64,000 nucleotides of DNA from a virus. A model generated the notes under the pieces. That model was given only the letters and a program-made list of their open reading frames with translations, was not told the DNA's origin and did no database searches. The position numbers were made by a program, and so were the translations under genes. The stretch covers positions 3,969 to 67,968 of IMG/VR virus record IMGVR_UViG_3300048834_000246. One strand, given 5' to 3'. Positions 3,501 through 49,364 of the stretch are shown here, piece after piece (position 1 is the first letter of the stretch; every line of letters starts with the position of its first letter).

Positions 3501-3818
3501 CTACCAACGCCGTTTGTGGTTGAAGGAAAAGGCGTCGAAGTAACCGGCGAAACGAATATCCTACCTCTCACCGGCTCTTTTACCTTAACAGGACTCTCGG
3601 TAGTTGCGACCGGGGAAATGGTCGTTACGGACGTAACCCTGGTCGGTCAGGTAGCTGTCTATCCGTACTTTAGGGGATCGGTTGATGTAGAACCTGAGCT
3701 GTCTTCTATAGTAACTATTACAACGGAACTTGAAGGAGCCGTGTCTGTAACATCGGAATTTTTAGCAACAGTCAGCGTAGAACCTGTGCTAGTGGCGAGT
3801 ATGGAGATTGAACCATGA
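531..3818 (+). CDS. large virion fibre/adhesin-like protein with C-terminal LTGQxVxATGQRNE repeats
   Basis: 1095 aa, T/A/S/G/V-rich; N-terminal carbohydrate-binding-like region, a BNR-like motif (KSTDDGATW), and more than 20 repeats of about 20 aa. Confidence 0.7.
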   Translation: MAPVTIAAGDKNAYYASGDVGWSARSVFAYHGVLNQLAANTNMSLASTVAQEYVSTGITPSSAFDLKYLRIALSKVGSPTDYVYVEVRSDDGSDKPGSTVLATSDQVSCASLTTTGTWRTFTFPTAVALSASTKYWLVARRTGAVDSANYPRISFSSLSSYGGGASYYNSSTGLWTGANLAWDWAWQLLQEHPVSLYAVTQDTSLHVWKSTDDGATWGEQDAADAPSVTNANYPFDATDTRAGPFIITARMTGTNTAAVRVFNMSTDQWDAADYGVTPPSTVSNERNIRVDNLNAFTAVGNAAITLHYTDSADDADIGYQRVTAAGNAWGSKASVLSITSGEASLVADTVMDQTSPGFLHRFFYDCANDDFSHRSLVTTTQGTQVDIDTTAAATDTKHASATYQPYLSSGVTTVVAAYIDSDDTIRERICSLDVTSASVTMASEAQISAATTTAGRQLSTCRYGTTNYAVVAVSGTGISYHTSTVAGTWSSATAWKTGLTNCVLSRALAIPDVGVLVVYTDNGDAKIDWIVGPFAGSVDGIADTQPALLELTAHSVTATGQRNETATTEPALLEFTGQTLVASAGATAATAPALLELTGQSVTATGQRNETAAVDEAALTLTGQSVVGSASVTAAIGQALFSLIGQAVEATGQVNETAVIDESVLTLTGQSVETSAGTTVSISQSDLALTGQSVEATGQRNEDAVVDSAAFVLTGQTVNVTATVTVTAETSAASLTLTGQPVSATGQRNENSVTLPATLAITGQTTTATGQRNEVAELTNATITITGQPLTASSGVTASVDTPTLALTGQTTTATGQRNETASLDIAAFVLTGQSVTATGTASQDVETDPAQLTLVGQSVEATGQRNELADVDQSVLQLLGQPVSVTASTTASISQAPLILTGQLVDVSGQRNETAIVGQSAFSLVGHTVTVEAMSGANADTDTASFTFTGQAVVATGQRNVSVATSPTEFVLTGQPVSATGQRNETAEPLPTPFVVEGKGVEVTGETNILPLTGSFTLTGLSVVATGEMVVTDVTLVGQVAVYPYFRGSVDVEPELSSIVTITTELEGAVSVTSEFLATVSVEPVLVASMEIEP

Positions 3819-4123
3819 AATTATACCCAGGAATGACGGTAAGCCTGTGGCTTAACGGTTTAGCACCGGTCTTCGGTGGAGATAGTCTTGACCTTAATGA
3901 GGTAGATGTGACGTTTGCAATTGCCGATAGTGAGGATACTATTGTTGTTGCGTCCGGAGTCGCTACCCAAATCGGAGAATCGTTTCGTCGGATTGTGACC
4001 CTTCCTAGTTCTCCCGGTAGGTACGTTGTATTGACTCGGGCTGTGTCCGGAACGTCGGTGTATCGGTCAGCAACAGATATTCGTATCTTACCTGCGGCGG
4101 ACGAAATCGTAGAAAACCCTTGA
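3815..4123 (+). CDS. small Ig-like virion protein (paralog of 14132-14458)
   Basis: ATGA overlap with the previous gene; shared TF..D...T....LTLP...G.Y pattern with 14132-14458. Confidence 0.65.
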   Translation: MKLYPGMTVSLWLNGLAPVFGGDSLDLNEVDVTFAIADSEDTIVVASGVATQIGESFRRIVTLPSSPGRYVVLTRAVSGTSVYRSATDIRILPAADEIVENP

Positions 4124-4148
4124 CAGCAATGGAATAGGTGTGTATACT
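4120..4148 (+). promoter_or_regulatory. sigma70-type promoter of the tRNA/ncRNA operon
   Basis: TTGACA-17 bp-TATACT directly upstream of the RNA array. Confidence 0.85.
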
Positions 4149-4225
4149 ATGAATGTTGGACGAGGATGTTTCCTCCTTTCTGCCTCGCACAACATGACTC
4201 GGGCGGTGGCAAGCCGTCCGATCAC

Positions 4226-4300
4226 AGTCCTTTCGCCAAGCGGTAAGGCATCGGGTTTACATCCCGACATTCAGAGGTTCGAATCCTCTAAGGACTACCA
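4226..4300 (+). tRNA. tRNA-Val(TAC)
   Basis: AGTCCTT/AAGGACT acceptor stem, loop TTTACAT, TTCGAAT T-loop, encoded ACCA. Confidence 0.85.
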
Positions 4301-4463
4301 GCTTTCAGGGTGCTTGCACTCGCCGTAAGATATAGGCGCTAAAACTATCTTCTGGTAAAGTTCACCAGGCTGTTCAGTCTGTACGAGACGGCAAGAGCTT
4401 ACATAGCTTCGAGCCTAGATAGCTAGGCGGTACAGAGTTCGTTAGAATTACAAACTCGAAGCT
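4301..4463 (+). ncRNA. candidate pseudoknotted structured RNA
   Basis: CGCC/GGCG with AAGATA/TATCTT (H-type pseudoknot); GCTGT/ACGGC with TCTGTAC/GTACAGA; hairpins CTGGT/ACCAG and GCCTAG/CTAGGC. Confidence 0.5.
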
Positions 4464-4469
4464 TTTCTT

Positions 4470-4552
4470 GGGGGTGACAGGTTTGCCTAACAGAAGGGTA
4501 TAAAAACTTTGCGCTGTTAGAAACTCCGGTTCGAATCCGGACACTTCCACCA
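4470..4552 (+). ncRNA. minimal tmRNA-like tRNA-like domain (no mRNA-like domain)
   Basis: GGGGGTG/CACTTCC-ACCA acceptor with G3.U70; stemless D-loop ACAGGTTTGC; helix CTAACAG/CTGTTAG; T-arm TCCGG-TTCGAAT-CCGGA. Confidence 0.75.
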
Positions 4553-4605
4553 AGCTCTACAGAGACGAAATAGAGCAAAAATCTAAAAGTCTTAGGAGTA
4601 ACAAC

Positions 4606-4779
4606 ATGGCTAGACGGAGAAAAGTAACACAGAAACAGACACAGGAAACTGTAGAAGAAACTGTAGAAGAAATTGTAGAAGAAACTGTAGAAGAAACTGT
4701 AGAAGAAACATCGCAGGAGCCTCTTGTAATGACCGCGGCGGGTCTTCAACGGATGGGTGCCCAACGTAAAACAACCTAA
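4606..4779 (+). CDS. small protein (57 aa) with a basic N-terminus and ETVE repeats
   Basis: AGGAG RBS then ATG; MARRRKVTQKQTQETVEETVEEIVEETVEETVEETS...; absent from the ORF track. Confidence 0.7.
   Translation: MARRRKVTQKQTQETVEETVEEIVEETVEETVEETSQEPLVMTAAGLQRMGAQRKTT
4645..4709 (+). repeat. 12-bp tandem repeat GAAACTGTAGAA, about 5 copies
   Basis: Visible directly; in frame within 4606-4779. Confidence 0.9.
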
Positions 4780-4796
4780 GAATTTTTTATGAAAGG

Positions 4797-5000
4797 ATGT
4801 GCGGTATAACGAACGAAGAGCGAATTGCAAATTTAGAAACAGCGTTGTACCAAGCGCTATTTGCAATTGGGTACCTTTTAGGGTATAGTTTATCTAAGGC
4901 GGAAACCGACGAAGAAAAGCAAACACTTCAAGAACAAGTTCTCGGTCGGTTTCCCCCCGCAATGCACGATGAAATTATTGCATTGTTAGTATCGGAATAA
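4797..5000 (+). CDS. hypothetical protein (67 aa)
   Basis: Plausible helical protein; its stop overlaps the 5' end of tRNA-Pro. Confidence 0.55.
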   Translation: MCGITNEERIANLETALYQALFAIGYLLGYSLSKAETDEEKQTLQEQVLGRFPPAMHDEIIALLVSE

Positions 5001-5065
5001 GGCCGAACTGGTGAGGCGCGGCGTTTGGGACGCTGAAATAGTAGGTTCGAGTCCTGCTATTCCGA
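4993..5065 (+). tRNA. tRNA-Pro(TGG)
   Basis: CGGAATA/TATTCCG stem, loop TTTGGGA, TTCGAGT T-loop. Confidence 0.9.
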
Positions 5066-5069
5066 CCGT

Positions 5070-5157
5070 GGAAAAGTGGCAGAGCGGGTGGTTGCTTTTG
5101 TCTTGAAAACAAACGTAGATGACGAATCTACCGTGGGTTCGAATCCCACCTTTTCCT
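5070..5157 (+). tRNA. tRNA-Ser(TGA)
   Basis: GGAAAAG/CTTTTCC stem, loop CTTGAAA, long variable arm. Confidence 0.9.
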
Positions 5158-5162
5158 CTTAT

Positions 5163-5236
5163 TCGGGAGTCGTCCAACGGTAAGACGAGTGACTTTGGAT
5201 CATTCTATCGGGGTTCGAATCCCTGCTCCCGATCCA
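5163..5236 (+). tRNA. tRNA-Gln(TTG)
   Basis: TCGGGAG/CTCCCGA stem, loop CTTTGGA, encoded CCA. Confidence 0.9.
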
Positions 5237-5383
5237 AGCCAAGAAAGGGTGACTCCCTTCCTACGAATGCCTAGTCAGCGACCGTAGAGTAGTGTAAAAG
5301 GCACGGGCGTTTGAACTGACCCTGAGGTAAAAAGACTACGACTTGGAAGATGCCAGACTGTAGGGTATTTAATAAGGGTCTTT

Positions 5384-5461
5384 ATCAGAGTAGTTTCTGT
5401 TGGTAGAAATCCTCCGCTGTTAACGGAGAGTGCGAAGGTTCGATCCCTTCCTCTGGTGCCA
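5384..5461 (+). tRNA. tRNA-Asn(GTT)
   Basis: ATCAGAG/CTCTGGT stem, loop CTGTTAA, GCCA end. Confidence 0.85.
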
Positions 5462-5618
5462 TGTATAGTTTGCGTGATACCATCTATGCAGTTGCCGAGT
5501 TGCAGCGGGTAAGTAGACAACCTGCAACAGATAGCGATATTATCACTAGGCGCTATCGGTCAGGGGTGGTCCCTGGGTCCGGACACGAGGCCGATTTGGT
5601 ACAAGTGATCCGGATAAA

Positions 5619-5692
5619 AATGATGATATAGTGTAATGGGAGCATAACCGTCTTTATGTCGGTAGGAGAGGTTCGAATCCTCACCATCGTTT
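5619..5692 (+). tRNA. degenerate tRNA-like gene, apparent anticodon TTA
   Basis: D-loop TAATGGGA and T-arm GAGG-TTCGAAT-CCTC; ACCG/CGGT stem around loop TCTTTATGT; irregular acceptor stem. Confidence 0.5.
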
Positions 5693-5696
5693 TCTT

Positions 5697-5780
5697 GGGC
5701 TATTGGTGAAAGTGGCATACACGGTTGGCTTAAAACCAACTTCCTTTACGGGATTGAAGGTTCGAGTCCTTCATGGCCTA
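5697..5780 (+). tRNA. tRNA-Leu(TAA)
   Basis: GGGCTAT/ATGGCCT stem, loop CTTAAAA, variable arm. Confidence 0.9.
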
Positions 5781-5795
5781 CCGAGAAAAAGCTTA

Positions 5796-5876
5796 CGGGG
5801 TATGGTGGAATAAGCAGACACGCTATCCTTAGAAGATAGTGCCTAGAGCGTACAGGTGCAAATCCTGTTACCCTGA
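5796..5876 (+). tRNA. tRNA-Leu(TAG)
   Basis: CGGGGTA/TACCCTG stem, loop CTTAGAA, variable arm. Confidence 0.85.
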
Positions 5877-5895
5877 CTAGATTTGGAGGGATTTT

Positions 5896-6297
5896 GTGCC
5901 GTACGCAGATAGGGCTGTTCAATTAGAATATCAAAAAAAGTGGATGGAAAAACGCCGAAACGATTATTTTTTGGACAAACGATGTGCGGATTGTGGCTCA
6001 AAAGAAAATTTAGAATTAGATCATGTATATAGACAAACTAAAATTACTCATAGAATTTGGTCATGGTCCAAACAACGACAAGAAGAAGAACTTGCAAAAT
6101 GTGTTGCGCGGTGCCATACTTGTCATGTAAAAAAGACGTTGGATAAAGATTTGCCACGAGCTAAGCACGGAACACGAAGTAAATATAATGCAGGTTGCAG
6201 ATGTGCTGAGTGTAGAGAAGCTCTGAGAGTAGATGTTTCTAAATGGAGAGAACAGAAAAAGACTGAGCGAATGTGTAGCACGAATCTTGTTTCATAA
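5896..6297 (+). CDS. HNH endonuclease
   Basis: CADC...LELDHV...CHTCH, plus a C-terminal HG...CRCAEC motif; GGAGG RBS. Confidence 0.85.
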   Translation: MPYADRAVQLEYQKKWMEKRRNDYFLDKRCADCGSKENLELDHVYRQTKITHRIWSWSKQRQEEELAKCVARCHTCHVKKTLDKDLPRAKHGTRSKYNAGCRCAECREALRVDVSKWREQKKTERMCSTNLVS

Positions 6298-6335
6298 GCA
6301 AGAATTTAAGGGGGCGGCACCCTTATTCGCCACCA
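6266..6335 (+). tRNA. degenerate tRNA-Met(CAT)-like gene overlapping the HNH 3' end
   Basis: GCGAAT/ATTCGC stem plus ACCA, CTTGT-TTCATAA-GCAAG anticodon arm; D-arm reduced and T-loop non-canonical. Confidence 0.5.
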
Positions 6336-6427
6336 AACTAGAGGATAATCACGACCTGCTCCGAGGATGTATGCATTAAATCCTTGTGACGTACCTCTAG
6401 CGGAGACTCTGAATCTCCGGGGTCTTT

Positions 6428-6499
6428 ATGAGTGTAGTTCAACGGAAGAACAGCGGCCTCCAAACCCGCTTGTTGAGGGTTCGAATCCTTCCACTCATG
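6428..6499 (+). tRNA. tRNA-Trp(CCA)
   Basis: ATGAGTG/CACTCAT stem, loop CTCCAAA. Confidence 0.9.
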
Positions 6500-6600
6500 C
6501 CGAAAAGCTAAACTCTTCGGGAGGTCCGTGGTTTAGGGAAGTCAGGTCGCCCCTGATGGAAGTATGAGCCTATTGCAGCGCCTCATGCGAACGGACATTT

Positions 6601-6674
6601 GGTTTTATAGCGCAATTGGATAGCGCCCCGGCTTGTCACGCCGGTGGGTACGGGTTCGAATCCCGTTAGAACCG
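6601..6674 (+). tRNA. tRNA-Asp(GTC)
   Basis: GGTTTTA/TAGAACC stem, loop TTGTCAC. Confidence 0.9.
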
Positions 6675-6680
6675 CAGAAG

Positions 6681-6776
6681 ACCCAACAGTGGAACCGTTG
6701 GTTGGGTGAGGAAGAGTACGTGGGGTGAGATTCCCACACCGAAAGGTGCAGATTGCTACTGGCGTGCGAACGGTTC
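6681..6776 (+). ncRNA. candidate permuted-tRNA-like (YrlA/Y-RNA-like) RNA
   Basis: Four-way junction of GTACG/CGTGC, a T-like arm TGGG-GTGAGAT-TCCCA, CACC-GAAA-GGTG and CAG/CTG; outer helix GAACCGTT/AACGGTTC. Confidence 0.4.
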
Positions 6777-6780
6777 ATTT

Positions 6781-6853
6781 GTTCAAGTAGCTCAGCGGAT
6801 AGAGTCACCGTCTTCTAAGCGGTCGGTCATAGGTTCGAATCCTATCTTGAACA
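6781..6853 (+). tRNA. tRNA-Arg(TCT)
   Basis: GTTCAAG/CTTGAAC stem, loop CTTCTAA. Confidence 0.9.
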
Positions 6854-6884
6854 CCGTGCGGGATTAGCTAATGAAGGGAGAAAC

Positions 6885-7259
6885 GTGTACTCTAACGAAC
6901 AAATGAATGAGTATATGAAAAATCGGTGGACGAAACGACGAGAAACCGCTATACTAAGTTTAGGTGGAGTATGTGTTTCTTGTGGAAGTACTGAAAATTT
7001 AGAATTTGACCATATTGATCCTAATACAAAAGAGTTTACTCTAGCGGCGGGATCAGGATTTTCCGAAGAACGATTCTCTAAAGAATTAGCTAAGTGTCAA
7101 CTTCTTTGTGTATCGTGCCATAAACTAAAACACAGGGCACCCCATGGAACGTTAGCTAGAAAACGAGATTGTAACTGTTCTTTGTGTAAAGAAGCTTGGA
7201 ATACGTGGAACCGAGAATATAAACGACGTAGACGACAAGCAAAAAATATCCCGTTGTAG
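6885..7259 (+). CDS. HNH endonuclease (paralog of 5896-6297)
   Basis: CVSC...LEFDHIDP...ELAKCQLLCVSCH, plus HG...CNCSLC. Confidence 0.85.
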   Translation: MYSNEQMNEYMKNRWTKRRETAILSLGGVCVSCGSTENLEFDHIDPNTKEFTLAAGSGFSEERFSKELAKCQLLCVSCHKLKHRAPHGTLARKRDCNCSLCKEAWNTWNREYKRRRRQAKNIPL

Positions 7260-7322
7260 TAGAGTGGCCGCTACACTAGACTTTTAATCTTTGAGACAGA
7301 GGTTCGAATCCTCTCAGCGGGA
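7250..7322 (+). tRNA. tRNA-Lys(TTT)
   Basis: CCCGTTG/CAGCGGG stem, loop CTTTTAA (weak anticodon stem), canonical T-arm. Confidence 0.75.
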
Positions 7323-7333
7323 CTAAATAACTT

Positions 7334-7407
7334 GGGGAAATCGCCTAACGGAATGGCACCTTCTTTGCAAGAAGGAATAATTGTGGATTCGAATTCCACT
7401 TTCTCCA
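7334..7407 (+). tRNA. tRNA-Ala(TGC)
   Basis: GGGGAAA/TTTCTCC stem with G3.U70, loop TTTGCAA. Confidence 0.85.
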
Positions 7408-7548
7408 CCGGGCGCAACCTGCCGAAAGTGGTTGGCTTAGGGTAGTTGGCTGCAATTACCTACGCTCTATATCATAACGAGGCGTCAAATTACCCACGCC
7501 TACCGGGATTCCGGGCATATAGAGGGGGAATAGATACAAGGAGAGATT

Positions 7549-7794
7549 GTGCAACCTGAACCTACCATAACAATTGTTAGTGGAAGTGATTGGACTCAGT
7601 TATATGTTAATGATGACTGTGTTGAAGAAAATCATAGCATTAGTTTAACTCACGGTTTAGATGCGTTGGATATTCCCTACCAAACTATTTCTGTCGATGA
7701 CGATAGTGTTATGGAAGAAATTTCCGGGTATAATTATTCTCTTCGTAAAGTAAAAGATATTATTGAAAACTCAGGACAACTACCGTTGTTCTAA
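7549..7794 (+). CDS. hypothetical acidic protein (81 aa)
   Basis: AAGGAGAG RBS then GTG. Confidence 0.7.
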   Translation: MQPEPTITIVSGSDWTQLYVNDDCVEENHSISLTHGLDALDIPYQTISVDDDSVMEEISGYNYSLRKVKDIIENSGQLPLF

Positions 7795-7799
7795 AATAT

Positions 7800-7872
7800 G
7801 GTGTTCATGGCCGAGCGGATTAGGCACACGTCTGTGGAACGTGGTAGGTGGGTTCAATTCCCACTGAGTACC
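7800..7872 (+). tRNA. tRNA-His(GTG)
   Basis: G-1 plus GTGTTCA/TGAGTAC-C, loop CTGTGGA. Confidence 0.9.
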
Positions 7873-7887
7873 CCCAAAAGTATCTAT

Positions 7888-7959
7888 GTCCGTATGGTGA
7901 AAAGCATATCACCAATGTCTTCGAAACATTAGTTGTGGGTTGGATTCCTACTACGGACA
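7888..7959 (+). tRNA. tRNA-Arg(TCG)
   Basis: GTCCGTA/TACGGAC stem, loop CTTCGAA; T-loop TTGGATT is non-canonical. Confidence 0.8.
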
Positions 7960-7964
7960 CTAAT

Positions 7965-8039
7965 GCGCTAGTCGTATAACGGCTATTACCGCAGTTTTCC
8001 AAACTGCCGATCAGAGTTCGATTCTCTGCTGGCGCTCCA
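7965..8039 (+). tRNA. tRNA-Gly(TCC)
   Basis: GCGCTAG/CTGGCGC stem, loop TTTCCAA, TCCA end. Confidence 0.9.
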
Positions 8040-8040
8040 C

Positions 8041-8118
8041 GCATCCTTAGCTCAGACTGGTCAGAGCGGCTATCTTGTAAATAGCGGGTCAAGTGTTCGA
8101 ATCACTTAGGATGCTCCA
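8041..8118 (+). tRNA. tRNA-Thr(TGT)
   Basis: GCATCCT/AGGATGC stem, loop CTTGTAA, TCCA end. Confidence 0.9.
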
Positions 8119-8120
8119 AT

Positions 8121-8152
8121 AAAAAAAGAAGCCCTCGGGCTTCTTTTTTTTA
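8121..8152. terminator. bidirectional intrinsic terminator
   Basis: A7-GAAGCC-CTCG-GGCTTC-T8 between convergent units. Confidence 0.9.
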
Positions 8153-8154
8153 TT

Positions 8155-8601
8155 TTAAAGAATGATAAGAAGGAAAACTCCTCCCACAAACCACAGCCAT
8201 AAATTTCTCGGTTTTTCTTGTGCTTGCATTGTTGATGTGTACACCTCCCCTCGACGTTTAGCTTTAACTCGTCGTTGGTTGTTGTGATTGTATTTCGGCT
8301 TACGGCTGTTGCGTGACATTCGCTCACGACGGTAATTTGCGATCTTAGCACGCCGGGTACGACCGGAAATAATTCTATTGCTCTTAGCCATATTACACGA
8401 TCTACATGCTGTCGCTAAGTTTCGAGGATGGTCAGAGCCACCCTTAGACCTGGGATGAATATGGTCTAATTGAAGATACATAGTTGAGTCACAGTAAACA
8501 CAACGAAAATCGTCTCGCTCATAAATGGCGAGACGATCTTCACGACTGATCCAACCTGTGCGGCCACCACGATGCTTACTACGATGCTTCCTTAAAATCA
8601 T
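8155..8601 (-). CDS. HNH endonuclease with a C-terminal hydrophobic helix
   Basis: RDDFRCVYC...LDHIHPRSKGG...NLATACRSCN; ends LWLWFVGGVFLLIIL. Confidence 0.8.
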   Translation of the reverse strand: MILRKHRSKHRGGRTGWISREDRLAIYERDDFRCVYCDSTMYLQLDHIHPRSKGGSDHPRNLATACRSCNMAKSNRIISGRTRRAKIANYRRERMSRNSRKPKYNHNNQRRVKAKRRGEVYTSTMQAQEKPRNLWLWFVGGVFLLIIL

Positions 8602-27338: not shown

Positions 27339-29945
27339 ATGGCGTCTTTCGGACCTAGAACGTATGGTTATGTAAACAGTGGTACAAGCGAAGGCTATGC
27401 CATTGTTCTCGAAAATTATGCACGCTCATATAGCGAAAATCAAAACTCCGCCCATATGTGGGCGGTTACTTTGCGTGGCCGTGTCGGTAGAGTGTCGGCT
27501 GTGGAAGGCAACCCCTCATTTAGATTTGTTATTTGGGAAAATAATTCTAGTTATGAACCGACTACAACTCGGGCGTATGGGGAAGAGGAAACATCATCAA
27601 CTGATCTTACATCCGGATCGACCGGAGCCGTGTACACTTCTGATATTGTTTCAGCAGCCGGTTCTCCCACGAACGACTCTGCACAGCTTTGGGCTGGTAA
27701 AAGTTATAGTTTAGGTATTCAGTCAGACCATGCAGACCTCCATGTGGCAATGATTTTCGCCGCAAGTATTTCTAAAGTAAACGAGAACATCTACCAACGA
27801 CAGTCTGCGGAAAACGCAACTATTCCGCCAAGCACATTTGGTACGGCATCCGTAGCATACGGTCAAGGGCATCTTACTGTTTGGACAGAAGGATACGCAA
27901 ACGAACCACCTCGCGTGCCGGTTGATCGTGTACCTAGCGGAACTATCAGTGATGCAACTCCTACGTTCACATCAACGTTCCGAGATAGAAACGGGGCGTG
28001 GGGAACGGCGAACTCTGGATATGATTCGGGTGATGTCATCAACCGGTATCGTATTCAAGTTCGTCGTGTTTCTGATGAAACAATTATGTGGGCACCTAGT
28101 TCGTTTAGTGCCACATCTACTGAAAAGACAAACAATGCTACTTCGAAAGTTTATGCTGGTTCGGCTCTTTCGTTGGGAACAACATATGAGTGGAGAATTC
28201 AGCATCAAGATATGTTTGAAGAGTGGGGTGACTATTCCGATTGGTTAGAATTTACCCCGGCACAAGCGGGGTATGTCTTTACCAATGCGTCGTCACCAAC
28301 TGGTAAACAAGAAGTAATTACCGGTATTACGTTCGGTGGTTCATGGACACACCAAAGTTCTACGTCTACAAATGCGGTGCAGGTTCGAATAAAAGAAAAC
28401 GGAACCGTTGTTCAAACAAGCGGAACTATTACTAAAACAGTAGTGTCAGCGGTGTCTCCTGGAACTGCATTTACCGTATCCTGGGCTGATACCGGGTTTA
28501 GCTCGTTGGATTGGGGTAGAAACTATACCTATGAGATTCGGGCACGGGATACTTCAAATGTGTGGTCTGACTGGTCTGATGGAAGAGCATTCAATACAAA
28601 CGCGTCTCCTAGCACACCATCTAACCTTATTCCCTCGAATGGGAGTACCTCTACGAGCTATCCGCTCCTACGATGTAGTGCGTCTGATCCGGACTCTGAC
28701 GACGACGGGGCAAGTCTTACTGTTAAAGCAATTATTACTCGTCCAAATCTATCAACTGTAACTGTAACGCTACCATACGTAAGCGGAGAGTATCAATATC
28801 AAACAACGGGTACGGAAATTACGGCAACTGGAACATATTCCTGGGTAGCATATAGTTATGACGGAACATTATATTCCGGAGAGCAGACAGTAGAAGCGAA
28901 CGCTGATAAATCGTCCGCGGGTACGTTTGTGTATGCGACCGGCCCTACGGTAACTATTACGTCTCCTACGGAGGCGGAAGTTATTGAGACAATTGATCCT
29001 ACGATTACGTTTAGTGTCTCGGGCGGAACTCAGGTTGAGTACCGAGTTATTATCACACAGGTAAGCGATAGTGCAGTTGCGTATGATTCCGGTTGGGTTG
29101 TTGATACAGCAACGTCTCACGATGTTCCATTAGGGTATTTAGATAATGAGACGGAATATACGCTTGTTGTTCAAGTTGAGGATAACTTAGCCTTAATCGG
29201 TATTTCAGGGGAACGAGCGTTCGAAATTGATTACCCCCCTGTGCCAGCACTAACAAACTTCCAAGCTAACCCGATGCAGGTAACAACGGACACTGTTCCA
29301 TCAGCGATTCGCTTGACTTGGGATGCTTCTATTGAACCGGCACCGTGGTTTGTTCGCTATATTCTACGAAGAAGTGACTTAACTAACCCACTTGCATATA
29401 TTTCTAGCCAGTCTCAAACCGAATACGTTGATTATCTCCCGGTGTCCGGGGAGAGCTACACATATACAATTCGACAAGTCAATGTTATCGACGGTCTAAA
29501 CTTGGCTGGTCCTACGGTATCTGCGGAAGCTTCTATTGATTTAGAAGGTGTAGTTCTATGTTCTGTAACAAGCCCAAGCACCCTTCGAGCTAACCTTTCT
29601 TTCGGGGAAAGCCGAAGCCACCGCTTTACGAACAATGACCAAATTTATCTTCCCTGGGGGGCTACGAAACCAACTACGGTACGAGGAAATATTAAATACT
29701 GGACAACATCCGGTCGGTACAAACTTATTGATGATAACCGAATCGGAGTTACCGCAGCACAGCGGGTGCAAGAACTTGAGGATATTCTTAACTCTGGTAA
29801 TATTCTTTGCTACCGAGATTCTCGGGGGCGGAAACGGTTTGTTGTTCCAGAACGAGAAGGTACAGAATTTAGTGACGAATTTTTCCTTCAATCAGAAGTA
29901 ACTTTGGCACTTAGAGAAGAAGCATACGAAGAGGGCGAATCTTAA
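27339..29945 (+). CDS. minor tail protein with Fn3/Ig-like domains
   Basis: TYEWRI and YTYEIRARD..WSDWS Fn3 signatures. Confidence 0.8.
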   Translation: MASFGPRTYGYVNSGTSEGYAIVLENYARSYSENQNSAHMWAVTLRGRVGRVSAVEGNPSFRFVIWENNSSYEPTTTRAYGEEETSSTDLTSGSTGAVYTSDIVSAAGSPTNDSAQLWAGKSYSLGIQSDHADLHVAMIFAASISKVNENIYQRQSAENATIPPSTFGTASVAYGQGHLTVWTEGYANEPPRVPVDRVPSGTISDATPTFTSTFRDRNGAWGTANSGYDSGDVINRYRIQVRRVSDETIMWAPSSFSATSTEKTNNATSKVYAGSALSLGTTYEWRIQHQDMFEEWGDYSDWLEFTPAQAGYVFTNASSPTGKQEVITGITFGGSWTHQSSTSTNAVQVRIKENGTVVQTSGTITKTVVSAVSPGTAFTVSWADTGFSSLDWGRNYTYEIRARDTSNVWSDWSDGRAFNTNASPSTPSNLIPSNGSTSTSYPLLRCSASDPDSDDDGASLTVKAIITRPNLSTVTVTLPYVSGEYQYQTTGTEITATGTYSWVAYSYDGTLYSGEQTVEANADKSSAGTFVYATGPTVTITSPTEAEVIETIDPTITFSVSGGTQVEYRVIITQVSDSAVAYDSGWVVDTATSHDVPLGYLDNETEYTLVVQVEDNLALIGISGERAFEIDYPPVPALTNFQANPMQVTTDTVPSAIRLTWDASIEPAPWFVRYILRRSDLTNPLAYISSQSQTEYVDYLPVSGESYTYTIRQVNVIDGLNLAGPTVSAEASIDLEGVVLCSVTSPSTLRANLSFGESRSHRFTNNDQIYLPWGATKPTTVRGNIKYWTTSGRYKLIDDNRIGVTAAQRVQELEDILNSGNILCYRDSRGRKRFVVPEREGTEFSDEFFLQSEVTLALREEAYEEGES

Positions 29946-40002: not shown

Positions 40003-40902
40003 TTAGTCTGTGACAAAACACCCACAACCCCCAACATCTGAAAAATCTATATCTTTCTGGTTCTTTTCTAAACGCTCCCGTAGAGCGTGCAAGGTCAGTG
40101 GTTTTGTATCCCCCCCTCTCCTGTCTCGAAGAATTGCTACCTTGCTACCAATAAACTCTTGAAATTCTAATTCTTTTCGTTCGTGGTAAAGGTACAGTGG
40201 TTTATTTGTTTTCAGTAAATTTGCGAAATGACCGGCTCCCGCTCGGACACAAAACCCCCCGCAATTATTGTGGGTAAACCCTTGTTCGTACAATGCGGGT
40301 AGTTTGATATTGTGTTCGTGAAGAATAGTAATCATTTCTGTTTTCGTCAGAAACGGTTCTTCACACATCGGGAATTCAACCAGGTATGGAAACCAGTTTG
40401 CTGTCGGTGCTTTTTTTCGATGTTGTTCTGTCCAATCTATACCTAAATATAGAACGCTTGTCTCCGGAGCAAAGTTTTTTACGATATATTTCCGAGACAT
40501 ATCTTGCTTTAATACGTGCGAACATTTTGCTAACCGAGAATTTCCTAAAAATCTTGTGTCTTTAAAAACATCCCAAGGATCACGTCCGTCAGATAACCAA
40601 ACAAAATGGTCTAACTTTTCGGTTACAGCGTGAGACAATGCAACCAACTGTTTCTTTCGCTCGTCGGGGTTTTCATGTAACTCTTCCAGAAGAGACACAC
40701 GGGTTAGAAGCTCTAATACATCCGCCCCAAAAAGTAAATTGTACGTTTCTAAAAGAAATGTGTAGAGAGATTTATCTTCAATGAGGGTGTCAGTAAAAAG
40801 AAGATACGTATTGTCTGTTCCATACTTTTCAATCACCCGCTGTGCCGTAATAAAACTTCCAATCCCACCGGAATAAAACACGATATGTTTTGTTTGACTC
40901 AT
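40003..40902 (-). CDS. PAPS-reductase-family (PP-loop) Fe-S protein
   Basis: SGGIGS PP-loop, CS..LK, HNNCGGFC, C-terminal GGCGCF. Confidence 0.75.
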   Translation of the reverse strand: MSQTKHIVFYSGGIGSFITAQRVIEKYGTDNTYLLFTDTLIEDKSLYTFLLETYNLLFGADVLELLTRVSLLEELHENPDERKKQLVALSHAVTEKLDHFVWLSDGRDPWDVFKDTRFLGNSRLAKCSHVLKQDMSRKYIVKNFAPETSVLYLGIDWTEQHRKKAPTANWFPYLVEFPMCEEPFLTKTEMITILHEHNIKLPALYEQGFTHNNCGGFCVRAGAGHFANLLKTNKPLYLYHERKELEFQEFIGSKVAILRDRRGGDTKPLTLHALRERLEKNQKDIDFSDVGGCGCFVTD

Positions 40903-43460
40903 GCTTCCTCCCATACTTTTGTGTTACCCCAATTGGAGCCGACTTTGACTTCAATATCTAACACCGCGCCAGAGGGGTTATCAATCGGCCATGTGGTCAT
41001 ATTCCGACGAATAACCTCAATTGCATCAGCTTCTTTTCCTTCTCGCACTTCACATTCAATAGAGTCGTGAACCAGGAACAAGCCTCGTCCGAGATTCTTT
41101 TCTTGAAGTTCGGTGTTGATCTTAATAAACGCAAGAAGGTTTAAATCGGACGCGAAGCTTTGCACAGGGGCATTCACTGACTGGTTCAACACGTTCTGAC
41201 GGTTCTCCCGTGTAATGAGGTTCCATCGACGTACACGTCCAAACGGGGTTCTGCTTCGGCCTTCGGTCAGCGCGATCTTGTGTTGATTAGCATACCATTC
41301 CCGATACTTCGGCGCAACTTCAAACACGCTATCAATAAGAACCTGTGCCGTTTCTTCTGTGATAGGCACCCCTTCGGCGGAAAGGTTTTTTGCGAGTCCC
41401 ATAGCTGAGATACCATAGAACACTCCGAAGTTGGTTGTTTTCGCAATCTGACGTTGTTCATCAGTAACGTCGTCTACCGGAATTTTGAAAATGCGTGACG
41501 CCATTTCCTTGTGAAAATCTCCGGTCATCACAGCTTGTCCAAGCACATCGTCTCCAGACAAGAACCACGCGCACCGGACTTCAAGCTGTGCAAAGTCACT
41601 CGACACCCAGACGTGACCTGGCGATGGAAGGAAGATACGCTTAATTGAGTCGAAACCCCCCTTCAACGTATTCGACCGGGGAATGGTTTGCAACGGCGGG
41701 TTGTGCATCGCCAAACGACCGGTTACAGCCCCACGCAAATCAATGTTCGGATGTACGCGACCATCTGACTTAATATCGTCCACGATGCCCTTAACATACG
41801 TGTTCATCATATGATTCATCAGCGTGAACTCTTCAAGCATCGTTACGAGAGGATGCCCCTTATGCACGTCTCGAAACGCTTTTCCGGTCGTAAGGTTTTT
41901 TGTATCCTCGTCAAATACTTTTTTGAGTTTTAGTGTTTCATACGCGAACGCTTTGATTTGTCCATCTGAGGCCGGGTTCAACGGCTCTTCTTTGTAAAGT
42001 TGCTCCCACCCGATAAACTTTTCTTTATCAACGGGAACGCTAACCATCTGACCGTGTACTTTCTTCCGCTTTATCTCGGTAACGGTTTCATAGCGACGAA
42101 TCTTTTTGTCCTCAACAACTCGTTTCCACCCGTTATCGGCGGCGTATTGTTGAATTGCCTGGCGAGACGCGGCGATCTTCGGAAGCCAAATTTCCCCAAG
42201 CTGTGCAAGATATGTCTGATCGACAAGAATACCTTTTGATTCTACATCAGCAAAGGTTCGTTGTGCCGGTTCAAGAATGTTCCGTACAAGGTCTACCGTG
42301 CCCTCTTCTTCAATGAGTTGTTGCAAAATAGGTTCAACCCTGGATGTGTACACCACATCTAACCCGGCGTATTTTGCAAGAATAGGTCGGGGTACATTTT
42401 CCCACCCGGACTTTCCAACACCGAGATATTGGTGAACCTCGTCTTCATAATATGGAGAATTAAGCCACTCCCGCGAGAGTGTTTTAAGACCAACCTTCCC
42501 CTTGTGTTCAGTAAGTCCTAAAGCCATACACATTGTATCAATGTCGTTAGCCGGTAAAACGTTGAAATACTTTTCAAACCACTGTCGGTCAAACGACATA
42601 TTGTGAATGATCCATGTAAATCTGCTATCGGATAGTAGATTTGCAAACTTACGCTTCAACACCGGATTATTCAAAACATCGTATTCAAATACAGCGGCTT
42701 TTTCAGTATTTCCGATAGCGACCTGAATAAGATAGTTATCAATAACACTAAGCCCGGACGTTTCTACGTCGATAGAAAGCTTATACCCAGCTCGTCCTGC
42801 TAAGAGCGCGTCTAGCACGCCGTTCGCTTGCTCTACACTCTTCACATGGTTTACTGGAATGTTTTCGGTTCGATCCATAATAGACAGTTTGCCGGTTGAA
42901 ATTCGCACAGCGCGGCGAGTTGAGGAAAGAATATCCTCAAAGTTACTTTCGGCTGTTTTATTATTTGCCATAACAGAAGATGGATTATACGTTGGAAGTA
43001 CAGGGGCAGGGAAGAGGGTTGGAAACTCTACTACCCCTTGCACTTCTTTCAATGTTTGCCGCGTATCTAAGGTGCTTCGTGACGCCGTTGTTCCAAGAGC
43101 AAGAATCATGTTTGGTTGAACAAGTTTCAACTCATGGATTAGGCGAGGACGACAACAATCAATAGCTCCTGATGGTGCCGGAATGTCTGTGTAATGAGCA
43201 TCTTGGTTTTGGCACAGTACGGCGTGAGTGGACCATACTGTTTCGAACGACTCACCTTCACGCTTTAAAACATTCTCAAACACAACACCTGAACGACCGG
43301 CAAGAGGGCGTTTCCCACGCACATCAGCGTAGTGAGGCGAATCCGCTACAACCGCAAGAGAAGCATCTACATTTCCATGCCCTAAAATAGGGTTTCGTTT
43401 GTGTCGCAACGGACACACATCACACTTGGCAAACTTTAATGCTTCTAAAGTCGGGTTCAC
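40899..43460 (-). CDS. polA: family A DNA polymerase with an N-terminal UDG-like domain and 3'-5' exonuclease
   Basis: CDVCPL UDG-like region; DVETSG, HNMSFD and YAGLD exonuclease motifs; DFAQLE, R..AK..NFG..YG and VHDSI polymerase motifs. Confidence 0.95.
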   Translation of the reverse strand: MNPTLEALKFAKCDVCPLRHKRNPILGHGNVDASLAVVADSPHYADVRGKRPLAGRSGVVFENVLKREGESFETVWSTHAVLCQNQDAHYTDIPAPSGAIDCCRPRLIHELKLVQPNMILALGTTASRSTLDTRQTLKEVQGVVEFPTLFPAPVLPTYNPSSVMANNKTAESNFEDILSSTRRAVRISTGKLSIMDRTENIPVNHVKSVEQANGVLDALLAGRAGYKLSIDVETSGLSVIDNYLIQVAIGNTEKAAVFEYDVLNNPVLKRKFANLLSDSRFTWIIHNMSFDRQWFEKYFNVLPANDIDTMCMALGLTEHKGKVGLKTLSREWLNSPYYEDEVHQYLGVGKSGWENVPRPILAKYAGLDVVYTSRVEPILQQLIEEEGTVDLVRNILEPAQRTFADVESKGILVDQTYLAQLGEIWLPKIAASRQAIQQYAADNGWKRVVEDKKIRRYETVTEIKRKKVHGQMVSVPVDKEKFIGWEQLYKEEPLNPASDGQIKAFAYETLKLKKVFDEDTKNLTTGKAFRDVHKGHPLVTMLEEFTLMNHMMNTYVKGIVDDIKSDGRVHPNIDLRGAVTGRLAMHNPPLQTIPRSNTLKGGFDSIKRIFLPSPGHVWVSSDFAQLEVRCAWFLSGDDVLGQAVMTGDFHKEMASRIFKIPVDDVTDEQRQIAKTTNFGVFYGISAMGLAKNLSAEGVPITEETAQVLIDSVFEVAPKYREWYANQHKIALTEGRSRTPFGRVRRWNLITRENRQNVLNQSVNAPVQSFASDLNLLAFIKINTELQEKNLGRGLFLVHDSIECEVREGKEADAIEVIRRNMTTWPIDNPSGAVLDIEVKVGSNWGNTKVWEEA

Positions 43461-43854
43461 TGACAATTTTCTCCTTTGCCATATATGCAAGAATGTGAGC
43501 GAACGCATCAATAGAATGTGGCGTTCGTGTGGTTTGTTCTAAAATATCACGCGCTATACCAACATACGCTTTTCGGGTTTGTGGAGTCTGAATAAAGGTT
43601 CGTATTCGTTTTACATAGTACGAATAATACTCAACAAACCCGAGTAATTTAAGCGTATAGGTTGATTCCGATGTTCGATACCCCCCTCCAATAAAGTTCT
43701 CGATAAGAACAATATCAGAGGGGGCGAGATTCTTGTCAATAATTGCAATAAGTTCGTCCGGTGTTGTTGTTTGTGTGACGTACACACTGTTTGTGTATAC
43801 GTCATACAGAGCAACACCGGTCGTAATTCCAGGATCAATAGACAAGATTCGCAC
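43420..43854 (-). CDS. RuvC-like Holliday junction resolvase
   Basis: ILSIDPG.TTG, IE, H..DA. Confidence 0.75.
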   Translation of the reverse strand: MRILSIDPGITTGVALYDVYTNSVYVTQTTTPDELIAIIDKNLAPSDIVLIENFIGGGYRTSESTYTLKLLGFVEYYSYYVKRIRTFIQTPQTRKAYVGIARDILEQTTRTPHSIDAFAHILAYMAKEKIVSEPDFRSIKVCQV

Positions 43855-46623: not shown

Positions 46624-46652
46624 AGTATACACACAAGTCTTCTACTTGTCAA
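46624..46652 (-). promoter_or_regulatory. sigma70 promoter
   Basis: TTGACA-17-TATACT. Confidence 0.8.
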
Positions 46653-49060
46653 GGGTTTTCTCTAAGCGTTTCAAGAAGTGCGCGTCGAATGTTTGTGTCT
46701 CGGAATGCTAGAGCTTTATTCACAGCGGTATCAATACTATCTTTTGCAAGGACATTGATAACACGAACGCGTGACGTTTGACCAGCACGCCTGGCTCGGG
46801 CGATAGCCTGTTGAATGGTACTCGGTAGGTAATCCTGTTCCGCGAACAGTAACAAGCTGCTGTGCTGCAAGTTCACGCCTTCGGTGAGGGATGCTAACGT
46901 AGCAACAATAATTCCATTATCCCTCGTTTTCCACTCTTCAACAAGTCGGTTACGCTCGGTTGTTGCCATACCGCCACGAATTTCGTACACAGGTCGGTCA
47001 TCGTTTTTCTCACGCAAATGACGTGCAATCATCTGGCACGTTCCTCTGAACCACGTAAACACAATTGCAGGTTCTAGTTCGTGGTCATCCAGGTATTCGG
47101 AGATAATAGAAACCTTTGGATTTTCTTTTAACTCTCCTACAATCGCACCGTCTTCAACCACAAACCCCGCTGTAAGCTGCCTAAGCTTTGCTACCAGGGC
47201 ACCTCCGCTACTAATAGCTACAGGATCGTCCAAATCAGGATGCTCAATAAACCACTCCTTCTTAGCAGTATCATGTGCTTTTCTCATGCTCGGCGGCATA
47301 TCGAATACATGATTTGTTTCTAATGGAAGATCAGTCCACGCAGGAATAACCCCCGTGCGGTTGAATTCTTCGTTGATAACTGTTTCATAGTTACGACGCA
47401 ACATATAGTTGTTAAGCATATCTGCAAACGCTACTTCAAGGTCAGGATTAACACCCTTAATAATCGTTGTCCACGGTGTCGTTTCCGTTTCACACCAAGT
47501 GCCAACAAATTTCCAGTACGAAGAAAACTTCACCCGGTCGATGATACGAAGTAACGGCCACAAATCTCCTGGGTTGTTGACGATAGGGGTACCCGTAAGC
47601 ATCCAAAAGTAGTCGGACTTTATCTTCAATATGTTCTTTGTCCACTGACTCTTTCTTCCTCGAAGACGGTGGGATTCATCAGCGATAACCGCTCCCCACG
47701 CATAGGTAAGAAGTTCAGGGTGTTTCTTCATGCCTTCGTTCATAAACATATGATAGTTGACAATAACCCACCCTGTAAACTCTTTCGGAACCGGCGCATC
47801 TTTCCTGGCGACAATCATCCACGGAACATCCGGAGAATAGGCAGAGATAACAGTGCCCCACTGTTCCAAAAGATACGGTGGGGCAATAATGAGTTTTCTT
47901 TTGTTACTGGCTATATCATTCCCCGCGCTTACCGCCGGGAAGGAATTGTGTGTAACGATAAAATCATTGGTAACGTATAGATGATCTTTAGCATCAACAG
48001 AAATACATTGAGCTTTTTTAGTTCCAACAAACTCAATCCCAGAAACTTTTCTCATAGGAAAATACTTTGTTCGAGGTGAGTATTGACATAATTTTTCGTA
48101 AACAAGAAAAGGCTGTATCGTATTAGGAAGTGAAGGAATAACCCGATATGACGGTAATCCCTGCTTGCGCTCACCCTTGTAGGTAAACCACGAATTAGTT
48201 CGCGGGGTTACTCGTGCAACACCCCCAAGACTTTGAATCAAAAAAACAACCCCCTCGGATAGTTTCTTCGATGTTGTTGAATATTCAATTGTAGAATTAC
48301 CTACAACACTACCATCGCTATCCAATAACCCTTGGAGTAACGAGACTCGACTATTTACCGAATTTAGAAGAAGTTCTTCGGGAATAAATTTATCATAGGA
48401 GTGTTTCTCAGACAAACCAATTGAACGAATATACTCTAGCAATATATTTACAGACACGCCTTTTTTTCGTCTAATTGTATAGTCATAAGAGTTATTTTTG
48501 TTTAGTTCCAAAGTGTTTGGCAAACGTTCAACGATCATGTCCCGCACAGTATCGTTGGGTACTGACACCGACACTCTTTTTCGGCCAAAATGACCGTTTC
48601 CTAAAAGGTACCCCATAACCCACGGGTCAATTACAGTTCGCTTTTCCGTAAACTGTACTGGATCAACCAGAGGTACTTGAATGTTTTGAGGAATTAGTGC
48701 AGCAAGATCGGTTGTTTTTACAATACGGCTACATTTTCCGTCTCTACGCATAGTCTTTGTTGTAACAGACCATAGATGGTCCGCGTCACATTCTGTATGC
48801 GTTCCATCATTGAATAACACGCGGAAAACAGGTCTTTCCCCTTGTGGGTAAACACCAGTAACTGTTGTTGGGTAGCCGTTTTTTCCAATTACTACTGTTC
48901 CAACCTTAACATTCTCCATACGAGTATAACCGGTAGGAGTAAGCACAAGAGCGTCTAATCCTTGTGCTTTCCCCATCCCCGGCTCGTCTGCAAGAATGCT
49001 TGAAGGATGTTTCAGAAGAAACTCTCTCGCCTCCTTCTGATAGTCCCACAACGTAATCAT
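46649..49060 (-). CDS. SNF2-like SF2 helicase (intein-containing)
   Basis: YQ, ADEPGMGK|S, DESH, LTGTP, EGVNLQ, QAIARARRAGQ. Confidence 0.9.
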   Translation of the reverse strand: MITLWDYQKEAREFLLKHPSSILADEPGMGKAQGLDALVLTPTGYTRMENVKVGTVVIGKNGYPTTVTGVYPQGERPVFRVLFNDGTHTECDADHLWSVTTKTMRRDGKCSRIVKTTDLAALIPQNIQVPLVDPVQFTEKRTVIDPWVMGYLLGNGHFGRKRVSVSVPNDTVRDMIVERLPNTLELNKNNSYDYTIRRKKGVSVNILLEYIRSIGLSEKHSYDKFIPEELLLNSVNSRVSLLQGLLDSDGSVVGNSTIEYSTTSKKLSEGVVFLIQSLGGVARVTPRTNSWFTYKGERKQGLPSYRVIPSLPNTIQPFLVYEKLCQYSPRTKYFPMRKVSGIEFVGTKKAQCISVDAKDHLYVTNDFIVTHNSFPAVSAGNDIASNKRKLIIAPPYLLEQWGTVISAYSPDVPWMIVARKDAPVPKEFTGWVIVNYHMFMNEGMKKHPELLTYAWGAVIADESHRLRGRKSQWTKNILKIKSDYFWMLTGTPIVNNPGDLWPLLRIIDRVKFSSYWKFVGTWCETETTPWTTIIKGVNPDLEVAFADMLNNYMLRRNYETVINEEFNRTGVIPAWTDLPLETNHVFDMPPSMRKAHDTAKKEWFIEHPDLDDPVAISSGGALVAKLRQLTAGFVVEDGAIVGELKENPKVSIISEYLDDHELEPAIVFTWFRGTCQMIARHLREKNDDRPVYEIRGGMATTERNRLVEEWKTRDNGIIVATLASLTEGVNLQHSSLLLFAEQDYLPSTIQQAIARARRAGQTSRVRVINVLAKDSIDTAVNKALAFRDTNIRRALLETLRENP
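47945..48967 (-). mobile_element. class 3 intein with a LAGLIDADG endonuclease (341 aa)
   Basis: Starts AQGLD, ends VTHN|S; DHLW, AQCISV and VTHN give the WCT triplet; GYLLGNG and GLLDSDG motifs. Confidence 0.9.
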
Positions 49061-49061
49061 G

Positions 49062-49364
49062 TTAATCCTTTCGAAAACGAAGAAACAACAGGAATCTATT
49101 CCAGGTACGACGATACCACCAATACGGTTCGTGGTCGAATTGCACACCTTGAATCAACGACTCTACAATTGAGTCATAAGGAATATGCCTCCCGCTTTTC
49201 TCGTAAATTTTCGCTGCGTATTCCGTTAACGCAATGGCATTTGCAACCTTTCGCACATCCATTGTGCCGTGTTCAATTGCCAAATGCAACATATCTAGGT
49301 CGCTATATTTTTGCTGGTATGGATTTGACTCGTCATTGAGCCAACGCTCAATGACATTTACCAT
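49062..49364 (-). CDS. hypothetical protein (100 aa)
   Basis: Operon packing. Confidence 0.65.
   Translation of the reverse strand: MVNVIERWLNDESNPYQQKYSDLDMLHLAIEHGTMDVRKVANAIALTEYAAKIYEKSGRHIPYDSIVESLIQGVQFDHEPYWWYRRTWNRFLLFLRFRKD

Follow-up and report, generated by a model that had tools for sequence, protein, structure and literature searches.

A tag-less mini-tmRNA and a candidate two-domain RNA in the first gap of a phage tRNA operon

When the genes of a phage transfer RNA (tRNA) operon are set apart by long gaps rich in hairpins, are these gaps RNA genes in their own right? The question is raised by a stretch of 64,000 nucleotides (nt) of viral DNA, positions 3,969 to 67,968 of the IMG/VR record IMGVR_UViG_3300048834_000246, which we call the window. 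The viral record has 67,968 bases and a CheckV completeness of 100%, and the window is nearly the whole of it. The record encodes a terminase, portal, capsid and tape measure proteins, a ribonucleotide reductase, a family A DNA polymerase, an intein-bearing SNF2 helicase and the RNA ligase RtcB. An earlier note on this DNA had listed seven non-coding gaps in its row of tRNA genes, and these gaps, here S1 to S7, are all present. The note had further described them as densely self-complementary, and had proposed that tRNA processing frees from them a set of structured non-coding RNAs, possibly linked with RtcB in countering RNA-targeting defences. We consider it likely that the locus is an ordinary phage tRNA operon, in which only the first gap, S1 (4301-4605), has conserved RNAs, a tag-less mini-tmRNA (transfer-messenger RNA) and a structured RNA that we call element X, and in which S2 to S7 carry no selected fold. 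Positions are those of the window, and features lie on the + strand unless marked (-).

The mini-tmRNA occupies 84 nt (4470-4553) and consists of the tRNA-like domain only. It was recognised by a match to the Rfam tmRNA family and by a covariance model, R2, described below. The Rfam match (RF00023; 4470-4552, 37.7 bits against a cut-off of 47, E 1e-12) comprises both ends of the tRNA-like domain, and the middle 326 positions of the model are skipped. The acceptor stem has seven base pairs (bp), GGGGGUG/CACUUCC, including G3:U70, and is followed by ACCA, with A73 as the discriminator. A T arm with a GGUUCGAnUCC loop is present and an anticodon arm is absent, its place being taken by a P2-like helix, CUAACAG/CUGUUAG, that aligns with the covarying helix of 58 sequences. 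The two strands of this helix are 33 nt apart, and there is no tag reading frame or pseudoknot in the 84 nt. An identification as a standard tmRNA was rejected on the missed RF00023 gathering score and on the lack of a tag open reading frame (ORF) and of pseudoknots, and ARAGORN made no tmRNA call at 4470-4553.

A second copy was found in a related phage. The relatives in IMG/VR are three contigs of one lineage, two of them identical where compared, and their primase-like protein is 73% identical to the one encoded here; the relative referred to below is locus L008. Its mini-tmRNA scores 46.4 bits with the Rfam tmRNA model and is syntenic, following tRNA-Val. One fold is common to both copies though their helix sequences differ: in each, the helix is capped by a 5-bp hairpin with a 6-nt loop and a 3-nt bulge, and the 3' ends read ACCA or ACCG. 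The genome studied here holds a single copy, and no SmpB gene was found in it. Contigs of three sequencing runs with nearer relatives (X1, X2 and X4) include the mini-tmRNA, or at least its 3' part, whereas the elements around it vary in presence.

How widespread is such an RNA? A scan of IMG/VR with a degenerate pattern gave at least 120 loci (L014-L133). Among the 120 matches listed, 82 have a full 7-bp acceptor stem and no ARAGORN call, and these represent at least 61 unique sequences, 54 of which are 80-84 nt long. The remaining matches listed are ordinary tRNAs (20), overlaps with long tmRNA calls (9) and sequences with imperfect acceptor stems (9). Two or more tRNAs lie within 1.5 kb of 14 of the 82 candidates among the matches listed. 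In an alignment of 58 sequences (this phage, the relative and 56 of the at least 61 unique candidates), the P2 helix and the T stem covary strongly. Model R2 was built from the same 56 candidates, with this phage and the relative left out, and it scores the copy studied here at 47.2 bits (E 3e-8), that of the relative at 52.1 bits and the tmRNA of mycobacteriophage DS6A at 59.1 bits, against 26.3 bits for the best true tRNA. In viral contigs such tag-less RNAs of 80-84 nt occur commonly yet go without annotation, and the one at 4470-4553 is, judged by sequence and fold, a new member of the DS6A-type tag-less family. The anatomy, conservation, covariation and family membership given in this report are direct results of comparing sequences and structures.

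The resemblance to DS6A extends to detail. Its tmRNA is about 83 nt long, starts with GGGG, has G3:U70 and lacks an anticodon arm and a tag frame; it likewise has a short P2-like helix, a T arm and CCA, and model R2 matches both molecules. The DS6A phage also encodes RtcB and a tyrosine integrase. By contrast, the DS6A gene stands alone between two protein genes and the present one lies inside a tRNA operon, the D-region and the P2 cap differ, the hosts are unrelated, and the G+C content is 45% here versus 69% in DS6A. The DS6A copy, at 28478-28560 of JN698994, is without annotation in its GenBank record. The primary description of the DS6A tag-less tmRNA is reportedly that of Mao et al. 2009, RNA Biol 6:355.

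What might such a molecule do? RNase P would cut at G4470, 3' trimming would expose the encoded ACCA, and G3:U70 together with A73 should permit charging by alanyl-tRNA synthetase. The tRNA-like domain should then bind the SmpB of the host. Since there is no tag reading frame, trans-translation would not be completed. Passages of two published accounts describe the DS6A tmRNA as 'TLD only' (tRNA-like domain only) and state that a similar molecule strongly inhibits tmRNA in Escherichia coli, perhaps via SmpB titration (PMC4131195, PMC11915505). From the G3:U70 pair and from these passages (PMC4131195, PMC11915505), we infer the processing, alanylation, SmpB binding and host effect of the mini-tmRNA. 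By analogy, it is most likely a decoy that blocks or diverts the tmRNA-SmpB rescue and tagging of the host. The tag-frame-less tmRNAs of mitochondria and plastids, as treated in part of PMC11915505, are likewise tmRNAs cut down to the tRNA-like part; unlike the phage RNA, which in a phage without SmpB would act on that of the host, they coexist with an SmpB dedicated to them and presumably work for the organelle.

The second RNA of the first gap, element X (4345-4469), is a two-domain structured RNA of about 125 nt, delimited by local alignment to the relative (L008 9509-9640 (-)). The alignment has a z of 5.4, and 0 of 60 shuffles reach its score; the fold has a z of -2.2 versus dinucleotide shuffles. 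Both sequences can form all 28 pairs of the consensus fold, 9 of them through compensatory double changes, whereas slid partners give 0-1. A tertiary contact is also predicted. The apical loop segment of domain 1, TCTGTAC (4378-4384), and a loop segment of domain 2, GTACAGA (4430-4436), would form a loop-loop pseudoknot. This pairing of 6-7 bp covaries, as the corresponding segments of the relative are CTGCAC and GTGCAG, a compensatory change. Element X precedes the mini-tmRNA here and follows it in the relative, where it lies between the mini-tmRNA and tRNA-Tyr. The two RNAs adjoin in both phages despite the swapped order, and in each a few bases separate the 3' end of X from the start of the following tRNA or tmRNA, an RNase P site. 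The 3' end of X would be made by RNase P when it cuts this next RNA, and both RNAs of the first gap would be set free by tRNA processing. The general idea is sound, since RNase P and the 3' processing of tRNAs must free any RNA that lies between them, and in the first gap the mini-tmRNA and X do end at processing sites of tRNA or tmRNA. The promise of new RNAs was borne out in this gap by X, which is new, and not by the mini-tmRNA, which is of a kind already known from DS6A.

The distribution of X is narrow. Within IMG/VR, a 19-base motif of X occurs in the relatives only. A covariance model of X, R1, found only these two copies in about 665 kb of loci, a search space that includes 80 mini-tmRNA loci and 80 bacterial pattern matches, and X is absent from the 80 mini-tmRNA loci. 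A relaxed motif gave two extra loci in IMG/VR and at least 120 in bacterial genomes, mostly Streptomyces; on 82 of the relaxed-motif loci R1 gave no convincing score (best 15.9 bits). In many Streptomyces genomes (L140-L219) the relaxed motif matches a uniform 44-base stretch, none of which scores with the X model, and this stretch is probably a conserved gene that matches by coincidence. Contigs of nearer relatives vary at this place: two have no room for X yet have the 3' part of the mini-tmRNA at least, and two others contain part of X. We also tried and rejected X as the mRNA-like piece of a two-piece tmRNA: the Rfam tmRNA model reaches 18.5 bits on 4301-4552, at low posterior, tmRNA_permuted gives 16.6 bits, and no tag frame common to the two copies is seen.

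In genomic setting, the best analogues of X are RNAC and RNAD of phage T4, small stable RNAs of the tRNA region which the parts of PMC3014915 and PMC9697503 that bear on them present as still of unknown role. Like X and the mini-tmRNA, they are RNAs other than tRNAs that a phage tRNA cluster encodes and that processing sites delimit, and they come from the same transcripts as the tRNAs; X has been seen in this phage lineage alone. Our best guess, drawn from this analogy, is that X may be a stable, processed small RNA like RNAC and RNAD that acts in trans or binds a protein. A bolder proposal, which we regard as doubtful, is that X and the mini-tmRNA might form a two-RNA module on the scaffold of the tRNA operon and act jointly on host rescue, that is on tmRNA-SmpB and perhaps on RNase R.

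Do the other six gaps behave in the same way? Folding was scored as z, the folding energy relative to dinucleotide shuffles; in the first of two runs, with 200 shuffles, no gap went beyond -1.7. The values are -0.85 for S2 (5237-5383), which is not conserved and is partly replaced in a near relative; -1.79 for S3 (5462-5619), with -2.56 on the opposite strand; -1.52 for S4 (6298-6427), which lies 3' of an HNH gene and is not conserved; -0.04 for S5 (6502-6600) and -0.88 for S6 (6676-6780), each absent in one near relative; and -1.83 for S7 (7410-7548). As a coding background, 60 random 130-nt windows of the same phage gave a mean z of -0.59 (sd 1.16), with 17% below -1.5. The values of S2 to S7 fall within this spread and the gaps therefore lie in the background, so that the supposedly dense self-complementarity of S2 to S7 amounts to folding no better than that of coding RNA from the same phage. 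In the same test the 17 tRNAs have a mean z of -1.69. A clear fold signal appears at two places only, element X and the 5' leader of the operon (4155-4225).

Comparison gave a similar result. At E up to 10, Rfam finds nothing in S2 to S7. None of these gaps matches the relatives, whether by Smith-Waterman scores versus shuffles or by DNA alignment, and none resembles any of 258 loci. Among themselves, they show no similarity beyond a 16-nt 3' end common to S5 and S6, for which 3 of 200 shuffles are as good; this common end reads TGCGAACGG(T)NCATTT and stands directly before the next tRNA. End-to-end closing stems were sought in the first-gap stretch S1a and in S2 to S7, and 0 of 7 had a z below -1 (duplex z from -0.99, in S6, to +1.35); the eight gaps of the relative range from -0.91 to +1.23. 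Some gaps contain other signals. S3 has a promoter-like site (5514-5543, 10/12 matches) and is found in contigs of 4 runs at 79-93% identity, S4 has a terminator-like hairpin (6401-6419), and S7 has a promoter-like site (7446-7475, 9/12 matches) and is probably the promoter and 5' untranslated region of the 81-residue ORF that follows it. S2 to S7 are best read as plain spacers, untranslated regions (S4, S7) or recombination leftovers.

How did such gaps arise? One answer, which we think unlikely as a full account, is that the gaps are decayed tRNA genes and scars of homing-endonuclease recombination, with no RNA function at all; for S2 to S7 it overlaps the reading favoured here and differs solely in the proposed origin. 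It draws on the recognisable tRNA fragments in the gaps of the relative, on two HNH genes within the array and on the mosaic make-up of the cluster, and in T4, according to parts of PMC2330249, a homing endonuclease of the tRNA cluster drives the inheritance of that region. One fragment (L008 9809-9879 (-)), directly behind an HNH gene, is a T arm with CCACCA, and others, in the Glu-Val and Leu-Phe gaps of that locus, are pieces of D arms; they suggest endonuclease-driven duplication or decay of tRNA genes. The endonuclease concerned in T4, SegB, is likewise encoded by a free-standing gene between tRNAs, in a cluster that is mosaic among relatives, as far as the consulted sections of PMC2330249 go; it is of the GIY-YIG type, unlike the predicted HNH family here. 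Against an origin by decay, no gap of this phage resembles any of 42 tRNAs and tmRNAs beyond shuffles (S6 comes closest, equalled by 16 of 100 shuffles), and the tRNA model finds no further match in S1a and S2 to S7 at E up to 10.

Nearer relatives, on contigs from four DNA sequencing runs of wastewater or aquatic origin, show this mosaic make-up of the cluster, and the breakpoints fall at tRNA ends. In one contig tRNA-Trp is joined to tRNA-Arg(UCU) by the three letters TAA, with S5, tRNA-Asp and S6 left out, and S5, tRNA-Asp and S6 (6502-6780) appear as one unit of insertion or deletion. In another, 1102 other letters replace 5612-6427. The comparison of differences with near relatives covers positions up to 5340.

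That all seven gaps form a functional cassette of structured ncRNAs, released by tRNA processing and working with RtcB against RNA-targeting defences, we regard as quite unlikely. In its favour, the gaps are non-coding and flanked by processing sites, their folding is on average slightly stronger than that of coding windows (mean z -1.15 versus -0.59), S3, S6 and S7 are kept in several near relatives, and the relative likewise has eight gaps of 119-197 nt. However, S2 to S7 fail every test, be it fold, Rfam, conservation, paralogy or closing stems, and both the unit S5-Asp-S6 and the segment 5612-6427 are dispensable in near relatives. The picture of seven structured RNAs is not sustained, as six gaps lack a fold signal above the coding background, conservation or a known RNA shape. 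As for RtcB, it is encoded in this phage, in both relatives and in DS6A, which has both RtcB and a mini-tmRNA. In this phage its gene (51853-53055 (-)) is 44 kb from the tRNA row. We searched 42 records (21 viral records of at least 30 kb with a mini-tmRNA candidate, 20 controls and the second relative), and only the two relatives encode RtcB. Of the 21 records with a mini-tmRNA, a single one has it, and this is the relative of the phage itself, so the suggested tie to RtcB does not extend to a general association, DS6A notwithstanding.

Several points weigh against the view of an ordinary operon with conserved RNAs in its first gap only. The test by fold z is weak both ways and leaves room for structure, with true tRNAs at only -1.69 on average, and the mean z of the spacers, -1.15, is somewhat under that of coding windows. 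Contigs of several runs retain S3, S6 and S7 with 79-99% identity, and S2 to S7 may have a lineage-specific function. For element X there are just two distinct sequences, which also served to derive its structure, so that the pair counts are inflated. The mini-tmRNA lies below the Rfam tmRNA cut-off (37.7 versus 47 bits), and its D-region, ACAGGUUUGCC, differs from the usual GGUUUCGAC-like motif; SmpB binding could therefore be weak.

The mini-tmRNA itself might be an attachment-site copy of the 3' end of a host tmRNA, or the remnant of a dead full-length tmRNA, but we hold this to be very unlikely. It is true that the phage encodes a tyrosine integrase (50893-51822 (-)) and that tmRNA genes, as part of PMC11915505 relates, are frequent integration sites of islands and phages. 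Against this, the acceptor stem has both of its strands, and 82 of the 120 matches listed keep seven acceptor pairs although the pattern left four of them free. The P2 helix covaries. A distance of 46 kb separates the element from the integrase; it is part of a transcribed tRNA operon and is syntenic in a relative whose DNA otherwise does not align. Least probable of all, and so improbable that we set it aside, is the idea that the gaps are self-cleaving ribozymes, akin to the hepatitis delta virus (HDV)-like theta ribozymes of gut phages, that make the tRNA 3' ends: several gaps do begin right at a tRNA 3' end, ARAGORN calls two tRNAs with a TTA anticodon here, and theta ribozymes, in the sections of PMC10879173 drawn upon, are structured RNAs directly 3' of phage tRNAs (at most 5 nt from the 3' end), often beside suppressor tRNAs, with a proposed role in processing the tRNA 3' trailer, but they are found mainly in gut phages with tRNAs mostly without encoded CCA, no Rfam ribozyme family matches at E up to 10, no HDV-like fold, nested P1-P2-P3-P1.1 with a catalytic C at a tRNA 3' end, fits the gaps, a strict HDV-like descriptor (made from general knowledge and not from the figure of PMC10879173, so that a divergent ribozyme could be missed) gives 0 hits, and a relaxed one gives 75 start sites versus 64-92 in 10 shuffles, none at a gap start, the seven sites near tRNA ends all lying inside the next tRNA.

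With the gaps accounted for in this way, the operon around them can be described. The promoter and the terminator that the earlier note had placed at 4120 and 8121 were both recovered. The promoter is of the sigma-70 type, TTGACA-17-TATACT (4120-4148), with 11/12 matches, and is the best site within 3800-8400; in the relative, TTGACA-18-TATAGT precedes the first tRNA. The terminator is intrinsic and bidirectional, a hairpin with a 13-bp stem and a T run (8121-8150). Between the promoter and the first tRNA lies the 5' leader (4155-4225), which forms two hairpins with a z of -3.43 (1 of 200 shuffles as good). The leader of the relative, 106 nt versus 71 nt here, has a z of -4.24 (0 of 200 shuffles as good); both are strongly folded, with no sequence similarity between them. 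Variants at 4210/4211 in near relatives sit within a hairpin loop of the leader. Such folding would suit a hairpin that stabilises the 5' end or takes part in processing. Transcription of the 17 tRNA-like genes would run from one consensus promoter through the strongly folded leader to one terminator, and the array, like other phage tRNA rows, has apparently been invaded by free-standing HNH homing endonuclease genes (two) and by small protein genes (three).

The 17 tRNA-like genes were called by ARAGORN (4226-8118). Rfam finds 16 at the gathering score and 17 in a sensitive scan, so that the row described before stands and its count of 16 is raised by one. In order, they are tRNA-Val(UAC) (4226-4300; Rfam 65.3 bits), Pro(UGG) (4993-5067), Ser(UGA) (5070-5158), Gln(UUG) (5163-5236), Asn(GUU) (5384-5461), a weak tRNA-like gene (5620-5691), Leu(UAA) (5697-5782), Leu(UAG) (5796-5877), Trp(CCA) (6428-6501), Asp(GUC) (6601-6675), Arg(UCU) (6781-6855), a tRNA with a weak anticodon stem (7250-7323; Rfam 56.1 bits), Ala(UGC) (7334-7409), His(GUG) (7800-7876), Arg(UCG) (7888-7960), Gly(UCC) (7965-8039) and Thr(UGU) (8041-8118; 62.6 bits in the sensitive Rfam scan), all named ones being found by both ARAGORN and Rfam. 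The genes at 5620-5691 and 7250-7323 are both labelled 'tRNA-Stop' by ARAGORN, with anticodon TTA. Because the latter aligns with the Lys tRNAs of the relative, with the loop CTTTTAA, it is judged from its sequence to be most likely tRNA-Lys(UUU), with only three good anticodon-stem pairs. The former has the anticodon loop CTTTATG and an Rfam score of 31.7 bits versus a cut-off of 29; it may be either a degenerate gene or a tRNA of the ochre-suppressor type. TAA serves the ORFs of the cluster as an ordinary stop codon.

Five ORFs between the tRNAs, two HNH genes and three small ORFs, had been left out of the earlier note. The first small ORF (4606-4779; 57 amino acids) has an AGGAG ribosome-binding site upstream and five 12-nt tandem repeats encoding ETVEE, and it has no match in Pfam or PHROG. 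In near relatives it is missing from two contigs and has one repeat (12 nt) fewer in another. The second (4797-5000; 67 amino acids) has no family in Pfam or PHROG either. By eye it is like the ORF between Tyr and Ala in the relative, but BLASTP and tblastn gave no alignment and the equivalence was rejected. The HNH homing endonuclease genes lie at 5896-6297 (133 amino acids; phrog_4234, E 6e-34) and 6885-7259 (124 amino acids; Pfam HNH E 1.6e-5, phrog_4234 E 1e-30). The third small ORF (7549-7794; 81 amino acids) belongs to phrog_19048 (E 8e-7) and has a tblastn match in the relative, where the homologue has its own TTGACA/TATACT promoter.

The tRNA row of the relative is syntenic, beside a deoxynucleoside monophosphate kinase gene, and larger, with at least 26 tRNAs, at least five HNH-type ORFs and small ORFs along with its eight gaps of 119-197 nt. 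DNA alignment to the relatives is confined to the tRNAs. One metagenome contig encodes a primase-like protein with 97% identity and ends before the tRNA cluster. Protein-seeded scans of IMG/VR with the upstream ORF, the 67-residue ORF (for which no relative was found) and the 81-residue ORF yielded no further relatives. Elsewhere in the window, the tyrosine integrase/recombinase gene (Pfam Phage_integrase, 88.9 bits) directly adjoins that of RtcB, and the phage may be temperate. The SNF2-type helicase (46649-49147 (-)) is split by a LAGLIDADG/Hom_end domain and is intein-like, and the family A DNA polymerase (40899-43511 (-)) has a domain of the uracil-DNA-glycosylase superfamily fused N-terminally.

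Our findings indicate that a hairpin-rich gap between phage tRNAs need not be an RNA gene, as the coding RNA of the same phage folds about equally. Element X adds a new RNA that is small and well defined and whose predicted tertiary contact can be tested. The mini-tmRNA belongs to a family that is missed by routine tools, with no ARAGORN call and an Rfam score below the cut-off, and if mini-tmRNAs block trans-translation, many phages interfere with host ribosome rescue. Should the two-RNA module be real, X would found a new class of phage RNA cofactors, and the tag-less mini-tmRNAs would make up a large family of decoys, essentially without annotation, with which phages counter ribosome rescue.

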